Part shown: positions 1 to 344 of the stretch, in pieces | Layout: each line of letters begins with the position of its first letter | How positions within the stretch are numbered: the first letter of the stretch is position 1 | NCBI RefSeq assembly: GCF_003334315.1 | Contig: NZ_QOWR01000136.1 | DNA length: 344 nt | Strand: one strand, 5' to 3' | DNA from: Escherichia coli | GTDB taxonomy: Bacteria; Pseudomonadota; Gammaproteobacteria; Enterobacterales; Enterobacteriaceae | Notes under the pieces: generated by a model | Seen by the model: the letters and a program-made list of their open reading frames with translations, nothing else | The model's database searches: none | Told to the model about the DNA's origin: nothing | Made by a program: the position numbers and the translations under genes

Positions 1-344
1 CCGATGACTTTGTCATGCAGCTCCACCGATTTTGAGAACGACAGCGACTTCCGTCCCAGCCGTGCCAGGTGCTGCCTCAGATTCAGGTTATGCCGCTCAA
101 TTCGCTGCGTATATCGCTTGCTGATTACGTGCAGCTTTCCCTTCAGGCGGGATTCATACAGCGGCCAGCCATCCGTCATCCATACCACGACCTCAAAGGC
201 CGACAGCAGGCTCAGAAGACGCTCCAGTGTGGCCAGAGTGCGTTCACCGAAGACGTGCGCCACAACCGTCCTCCGTATCCTGTCATACGCGTAAAACAGC
301 CAGCGCTGACGTGATTTAGCACCGACGTAGCCCCACTGTTCGTC
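1..344 (-). mobile_element. Internal fragment of an IS1-family insertion sequence (divergent or mosaic isoform); both element ends lie outside the window
   Basis: The reverse complement of the window matches, along its whole length, the insB portion of IS1 as I recall it (e.g. ...GATGACGGATGGCTGGCCGCTGTATGAATCCCGCCTGAAGGGAAAGCTGCACGTAATCAGCAAGCGATATACGCAGCGAATTGAGCGGCATAACCTGAATCTGAGGCAGCACCTGGCACGGCTGGGACGGAAGTCGCTGTCGTTCTCAAAATCGGTGGAGCTGCATGACAAAGTCATCGG). No terminal inverted repeat or target-site duplication is visible because the window is internal to the element. Identification is from memory of the IS1 sequence, not a database search. Confidence 0.93.
1..344 (-). CDS. insB: IS1 transposase InsB / InsAB' C-terminal region, partial at both ends (5' part of insB and the stop codon lie outside the window)
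   Basis: The minus-strand frame with codons running from 344 down to 3 is open across the window: 114 sense codons and no stop. It translates to [115 protein letters not shown], which is collinear with IS1 InsB as recalled (...[124 protein letters not shown]). It is missing from the supplied ORF track presumably because it has neither start nor stop codon inside the window. Confidence 0.92.

Follow-up and report, generated by a model that had tools for sequence, protein, structure and literature searches.

A 344-nt Escherichia coli sequence read as an internal segment of a mosaic, IS1X2-like IS1 transposase gene

How much can a short internal piece of an insertion sequence tell us about the copy it came from, the site at which that copy sits, and its pairing with a second copy? 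The question is raised by the 344-nt stretch of Escherichia coli DNA analyzed here, which we call the window. The window is almost certainly an internal piece of IS1, lying antisense to the strand shown, coding for the DDE catalytic domain of InsAB' and belonging to an IS1X2-like mosaic lineage. No evidence in the window is contrary to the internal-IS1 reading, and the feature is an already known, ordinary one without novelty. The features located in the window are listed below.

Positions 1 to 344, minus strand: IS1 segment, nt 379 to 722 of 768, the insB part of insAB' (from the open frame, Pfam, NCBIfam, and mapping).
Positions 342 to 344, minus strand: first candidate catalytic Asp, codon GAC, window amino acid 1 (InsAB' D109), in the motif EM-D-EQW; Asp in 17 of 19 aligned rows.
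Positions 171 to 173, minus strand: second candidate catalytic Asp, codon GAT, window amino acid 58 (InsAB' D166), in the motif MT-D-GW; Asp in 16 of 19 rows.
Positions 96 to 98, minus strand: candidate catalytic Glu, codon GAG, window amino acid 83 (InsAB' E191); column kept in at least 17 of 19 rows.
Positions 151 to 184, no strand: interval of the apparent mosaic (recombination) junction, IS1 nt 539 to 572 (from the segregation of isoform differences).
Positions 4 to 294, plus strand: ATG-initiated antisense open reading frame (ORF) of 96 codons (from the ORF listing), judged not to be a gene.

The earlier note on this DNA took the sequence to be IS1, and that premise is confirmed by three kinds of evidence. 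A megablast comparison with 5,426 complete E. coli genomes matched the window in 9,463 E. coli records, labeled "IS1 family transposase." On the minus strand, frame 1 of the reverse complement runs for 114 codons without a stop, its translation ending in SVELHDKVI, and residues 1 to 114 of this translation match Pfam DDE_Tnp_IS1 (PF03400; 1e-63; model positions 8 to 121 of 131). The translation also scores 127.8 bits against the NCBIfam equivalog NF033558 (transpos_IS1, "IS1 family transposase"), for which the curated cutoff is 100 bits. An IS1-type DDE domain, which defines the IS1 family, was thus found in the window with both Pfam and NCBIfam.

We placed the window within the element by mapping it onto full-length copies that are 100% identical to it, using as coordinate reference a 768-bp IS1 on an E. 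coli chromosome (L001, locus positions 2955 to 3722). The window corresponds to positions 3001 to 3344 of that locus, with window base 344 at IS1 nt 379 and base 1 at nt 722, and the transposase gene is on the minus strand of the window. A simulated −1 fusion yields a 232-amino-acid InsAB', of which the window codes for residues 109 to 222 (L001 and L013). The 23-nt imperfect inverted repeats occupy IS1 nt 1 to 23 and 746 to 768, beyond the window; in L001 they read GGTGATGCTGCCAACTTACTGAT and GGTAATGACTCCAACTTATTGAT and are 78% complementary. Also beyond it are insA (nt 56 to 331) with its stop codon, the slippery site TTAAAAAAC at nt 305 to 313 (A6C at nt 307 to 313), which lies 66 nt past window base 344, and the final 31 nt of insB, comprising its last 10 codons. 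All 11 copies that contain the exact window are 768-bp elements with both inverted repeats (the L005 element is complete after joining across the record origin, and the L018 contig begins 2 nt before the left inverted repeat, IRL), and insA, A6C, and the fused 232-amino-acid InsAB' are present in the two exact-window copies checked, L001 and L013. These full-length copies bear out the earlier statement that the inverted repeats, insA, the frameshift site, and the flanks all fall outside the window; the window alone cannot demonstrate the ends, insA, or the frameshift site of its own element.

To characterize the encoded domain, we aligned the window translation with 18 IS1-family proteins that were 44 to 66% identical to it (19 rows). 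These relatives came from the 1,799 matches (E ≤ 0.001) obtained when 1.84 billion representative proteins were searched. From conservation in this alignment and the motif described in the literature, we infer that D109, D166, and E191 are candidate catalytic residues. Between the second D and the E of the candidate triad there are 24 residues, and a basic residue lies 7 positions past the E. The window thus appears to carry the IS1-family arrangement, a D-D-E triad with about 24 residues from the second D to the E, whose catalytic role is taken from the literature. InsAB' carries a catalytic DDE motif (PMC12428005, PMC12903888), and the D-D-E motif is credited to Ohta et al. 2002 (as cited in PMC12428005). 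Most exceptions across the three columns are proteins that look degenerate elsewhere; at the second Asp the exceptions are three rows, two of which (P0052 and P0117) look degenerate elsewhere in the alignment, and the third of which (P0108) has Gly.

The public genomes were searched with a 166-nt segment spanning the junction, and identity over the full window was then confirmed by script. The exact 344-mer was found in at least 11 distinct flanking contexts. It occurs at 100% identity on two E. coli chromosomes (L001 and L002), on the Klebsiella pneumoniae plasmids pKPT698-tmexCD and pS90-2.2, on the Salmonella Senftenberg plasmid pNDM-SAL, on the Enterobacter cloacae plasmid pNDM1_EC14653 (L006), in four metagenome contigs, and in a Yersinia artesiana contig, the last being the sole match to the 166-nt junction query among 100,044 species-representative genomes. 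The flanks include a truncated putA, an IS-rich island, resistance regions with strAB and qnrB4, blaCMY-4, capsule genes, and, in Yersinia, a MIP-channel gene beside a repeat-protein gene; those on plasmids include resistance regions of IncF, IncC, and IncHI1B plasmids. The flanks are unlike almost everywhere, and only the flank on the IRL side is common to L001 and L002. The exact-window copies themselves vary at up to 22 sites, all of them at nt 1 to 345 or at nt 750 or 765, beyond the window.

Among the 10 exact-window copies with readable flanks (L001 to L006, L013, and L015 to L017), a perfect 9-bp target duplication was present in one (L006, CGGTATTTA). The ends of the Yersinia copy (L013) match at 7 of 9 positions (CAAAAATCG and CTAAAAGCG). 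The frequently missing duplications and the truncated neighbors in related loci fit the outcomes of adjacent deletion and of recombination between copies.

The two E. coli chromosomes, of strains EF7-18-51 (L001) and E8 (L002), carry identical IS1 copies with a shared IRL-side flank consisting of IS5 and IS3 fragments and a phytase-like esterase. On the side of the right inverted repeat (IRR), the flank is a 5'-truncated putA in EF7-18-51 and a hypothetical gene with IS3 in E8, and a target duplication is absent from both copies. Such a pattern would be expected of an IS1-mediated adjacent deletion or rearrangement. In Yersinia artesiana IP42281 (NZ_CACVAD010000041.1; L013, positions 2908 to 3675), a complete IS1 of the enteric plasmid type lies between a MIP-family channel gene, itself 3' of a PduG-like reactivase gene, and a gene for a 979-amino-acid repeat protein.

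Because the identical 344-mer stands in such varied contexts and its 99.4% relative is a truncated copy, neither the intactness of the element, nor its target, nor its pairing can be read from the window. The earlier note had anticipated this for the genomic context as a whole, and the number of contexts agrees with it. Its caution that the interrupted target could not be deduced held as well, with flanks that range from the truncated putA through plasmid resistance regions to the Yersinia contig, as did its caution over intactness, since the exact copies are full-length and the 99.4% relative is truncated with an in-frame stop. As a 344-nt internal IS1 fragment without positional information, the window cannot serve to assign a taxon or a locus, since five or more genera carry it unchanged, both on chromosomes and on conjugative resistance plasmids.

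IS1 matches were found by megablast in 4,965 of the 5,426 complete E. coli genomes, with 10 places in the median genome and up to 66 in a single one. Plasmids that match the window number at least 5,000, and most of them come from Klebsiella and Escherichia. IS1 had been described beforehand as usually multicopy, which these counts substantiate. The accompanying remark that short-read assemblies break or collapse at IS1 is backed by the copy number and by a published case in which a short-read-only assembly recovered IS1X2 solely as five connected graph nodes, with copy number indeterminable (PMC10569738). Where the window turns up, an assembly break or repeat collapse is therefore likely, and placing it needs long reads.

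This leads to the question of whether the window represents one locus at all. It could be a collapsed repeat node, that is, a stand-alone short contig that represents several IS1 copies, and we regard this as possible, if doubtful. The window is only 344 bases long, the E. coli genomes carry IS1 at a median of 10 places, the five-node recovery of IS1X2 offers a published parallel (PMC10569738), and the exact-window metagenome contigs tend to be short or to stop where the IS1 does (L017 has 1,016 nt, and L018 begins 2 nt before the IRL). However, no contig of 344 nt was found in the metagenome scan, the IS1 positions adjoining the window ends (nt 378 and 723) show no variation across 12 compared IS1 copies, and the window may be an arbitrary slice. 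Because nt 378 and 723 do not vary in those 12 copies, the ends of the window do not match isoform polymorphisms. A graph node bounded by isoform single-nucleotide polymorphisms (SNPs), considered as a candidate in its own right, was unsupported, the nearest variable sites in the 12 copies being at nt 372 and 731 or beyond.

An improbable alternative places the window in an arm of a Tn9-like IS1 composite transposon, in which two IS1 copies move, for instance, a resistance or capsule cluster. Exact-window copies do occur in plasmid resistance regions, beside blaCMY-4 and near strAB and qnrB4, and the IncF NDM-1 plasmid pNDM1_EC14653 has a composite-like arrangement, with an IS1B at positions 112 to 879 and an exact-window IS1 at 4955 to 5722 of the locus (L006), mutually inverted and bracketing about 4 kb of capsular polysaccharide biosynthesis genes. 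However, the outer flanks of this pair do not match, and a perfect 9-bp duplication, CGGTATTTA, flanks the exact-window copy alone, which gives it the look of a solo insertion. A second IS1 is absent from the fetched annotation of the remaining exact-match loci, and the window itself carries no information on composite pairing. That pairing could not be read from the window, as had been argued, is in keeping with a second IS1 being annotated in one of the six annotated exact-match loci (L006).

It is very unlikely that the window comes from a truncated, dead IS1 remnant, an immobile insB fragment whose insA half was lost to another IS or a deletion, since its 114 codons contain no stop or frameshift and the exact 344-mer occurs in full 768-bp elements in 11 of 11 cases. 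Remnants of this kind do exist. In the E. coli CT30 chromosome (L007, positions 970 to 1380), only IS1 nt ∼343 to 768 remain, between hlyE and ISEc12, and the piece is annotated as a pseudogene with an internal stop, TGG having become TAG at the codon for window residue 55. Several of the listed E. coli chromosomes (H7, H10, H11, H14, H16, H18, and H19) have, near 70 kb, a segment with 99.4% identity to the window, and partial IS1 pieces are also annotated in L009 and L012. The CT30 remnant nonetheless differs from the window at two positions, one of which is its stop codon. Given that a relative this close, at 99.4%, has been truncated and carries a stop, the window could be intact and still belong to a dead copy. 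The remnant of the L007 type appears to be a conserved chromosomal relic, with matches recurring at one position in several strains (one of them fetched). We infer that the source copy of the window, read as an internal piece of IS1, is complete and active.

The isoform differences within the window fall into two blocks. Plus-strand positions 1 to 184 (IS1 nt 539 to 722) are identical to IS1A, IS1B, and IS1SD, and positions 151 to 344 (IS1 nt 379 to 572) are identical to IS1F. The 33 informative sites, 14 in one block and 19 in the other, segregate perfectly (P = 2.4e-9). The best explanation of this pattern, as judged from the alignments, is that co-resident IS1 isoforms underwent homologous recombination or gene conversion; the mosaic relationship is evident from the three lineages, but any of them could be the recombinant. 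Mosaic IS1 copies are said to have been described already in the early 1990s, and Lawrence, Ochman, and Hartl reportedly treated IS1 evolution in 1992. In the full-length elements the insA half is mosaic as well. The exact-window elements differ at 7 to 22 sites in nt 1 to 345, and the isoform can therefore not be assigned from the window alone. What the window does permit is typing at the isoform level, as an IS1F/IS1A-type chimera close to IS1X2. The title of the earlier note placed the informative parts of the element outside the window. This holds for the ends, insA, A6C, and the flanks but not for the candidate triad and the mosaic junction, both of which are inside.

Junctions fall at different places in related copies. 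In L011, a 97.4% copy, the junction is at nt 622 to 629, and in the IS1X2-labeled L007 it is apparently at nt 574 to 596, versus 539 to 572 in the window. We consider it unlikely, but worth stating, that the 3' part of insB holds a preferred zone of recombination or gene conversion that repeatedly yields IS1 chimeras, which plasmids then spread between genera. The block from nt 346 to 749 is common to all exact-window copies. If the recombination-zone reading were true, this block would be a successful catalytic module swapped among insA/IRL halves.

One further mosaic around the same central block was seen in a metagenome contig (ERZ1031347 NODE-26197; L014). Its IS1 lies at positions 198 to 965 of the oriented contig, contains the 166-nt junction segment exactly, and differs from the window-type elements at 38 sites, of which those in the range of the window include nt 381, 387, 402, 414, 440, and 630 to 714.

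Other features of the window were also examined. The antisense ORF at positions 4 to 294 was rejected as a gene, having no NCBIfam match and containing two stops in IS1F and in L011 while insB stays open in both. Because it shares its third codon positions with insB, it can be open in some isoforms, and counts by codon position do not discriminate for it; we regard it as an antisense artifact of the insB frame. An Rfam scan of the window at E ≤ 1 gave no match, a promoter and terminator scan of both window strands found none, and the RNA fold of the window was no more stable than that of shuffled sequences (z = +1.03). No repeats were found in the window beyond a weak 13-nt overlapping palindrome around ACGCGT at positions 280 to 299. 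On these Rfam, promoter/terminator, fold, and repeat scans, a hidden RNA or regulatory element in the window was rejected.

The way in which the encoded domain would act can be outlined from the literature on IS1 transposition (PMC12428005, PMC12903888, PMC10569738); the identity, coordinates, open frame, D/D/E columns, mosaic pattern, and multiplicity of contexts come from the present analysis. The published accounts describe a 768-bp element with an A6C frameshift, an InsA repressor, and a DDE motif (PMC12428005, PMC12903888), as well as IS1X2 activity and IS1-mediated adjacent deletion (PMC10569738). A weak promoter within the IRL, PIS1, would transcribe insA and insB. Normal translation would produce the repressor InsA, which would repress the promoter and compete for the ends of the element. 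A rare −1 ribosomal frameshift at A6C would join the zinc-finger/helix-turn-helix (HTH) DNA-binding part of InsA to the insB-encoded catalytic domain, the part of the fused InsAB' for which the window codes. InsAB' would then bind the 23-bp terminal repeats, nick the ends, and join them to the target, with a simple insertion flanked by a 9-bp target duplication, a cointegrate, or an adjacent deletion as the usual products. In the window copy, insB resembles IS1F as far as about nt 538 and IS1A/B beginning around nt 573, which recombination or gene conversion would account for.

The biological weight of the finding is small, since IS1 ranks with the best-studied and most abundant Enterobacterales insertion sequences and the piece is a standard part of its transposase gene. 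IS1F of E. coli has the same protein as the window over all 114 residues. At the nucleotide level the two are 95.9% identical overall, with 14 differences, all at plus-strand positions 9 to 150 (IS1 nt 573 to 714). All 14 are synonymous and 13 lie at third codon positions, which points to purifying selection on the insB frame. Classical IS1, represented by IS1A, IS1B, and IS1SD (E. coli K-12, R100, and Shigella), has the same 768-bp organization, inverted repeats, and A6C site but differs from the window at 19 positions, all within plus-strand positions 185 to 330, which change eight InsB amino acids (94.5% identity overall).

The nearest named relatives are those of IS1X2 (an ISfinder isoform name, as used by NCBI PGAP), which are 99.4% identical over the window and carry the PGAP label "IS1-like element IS1X2 family transposase." This likeness was judged against PGAP-labeled copies, and the 100% matches are labeled only "IS1 family transposase." IS1X2 is an active isoform, for which an interrupted nfsA and adjacent deletions of nfsB and of capsule-locus genes have been described (PMC10569738); nfsA and nfsB are genes of nitrofurantoin susceptibility. 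The IS1X2-labeled L007 departs from the window at nt 573, where its base is that of IS1F, and at nt 542, where it has a private stop mutation. The IS1X2-labeled relatives share the plan of the window, with a middle part of insB that is IS1F-like and a 3' part that is IS1A/B-like.
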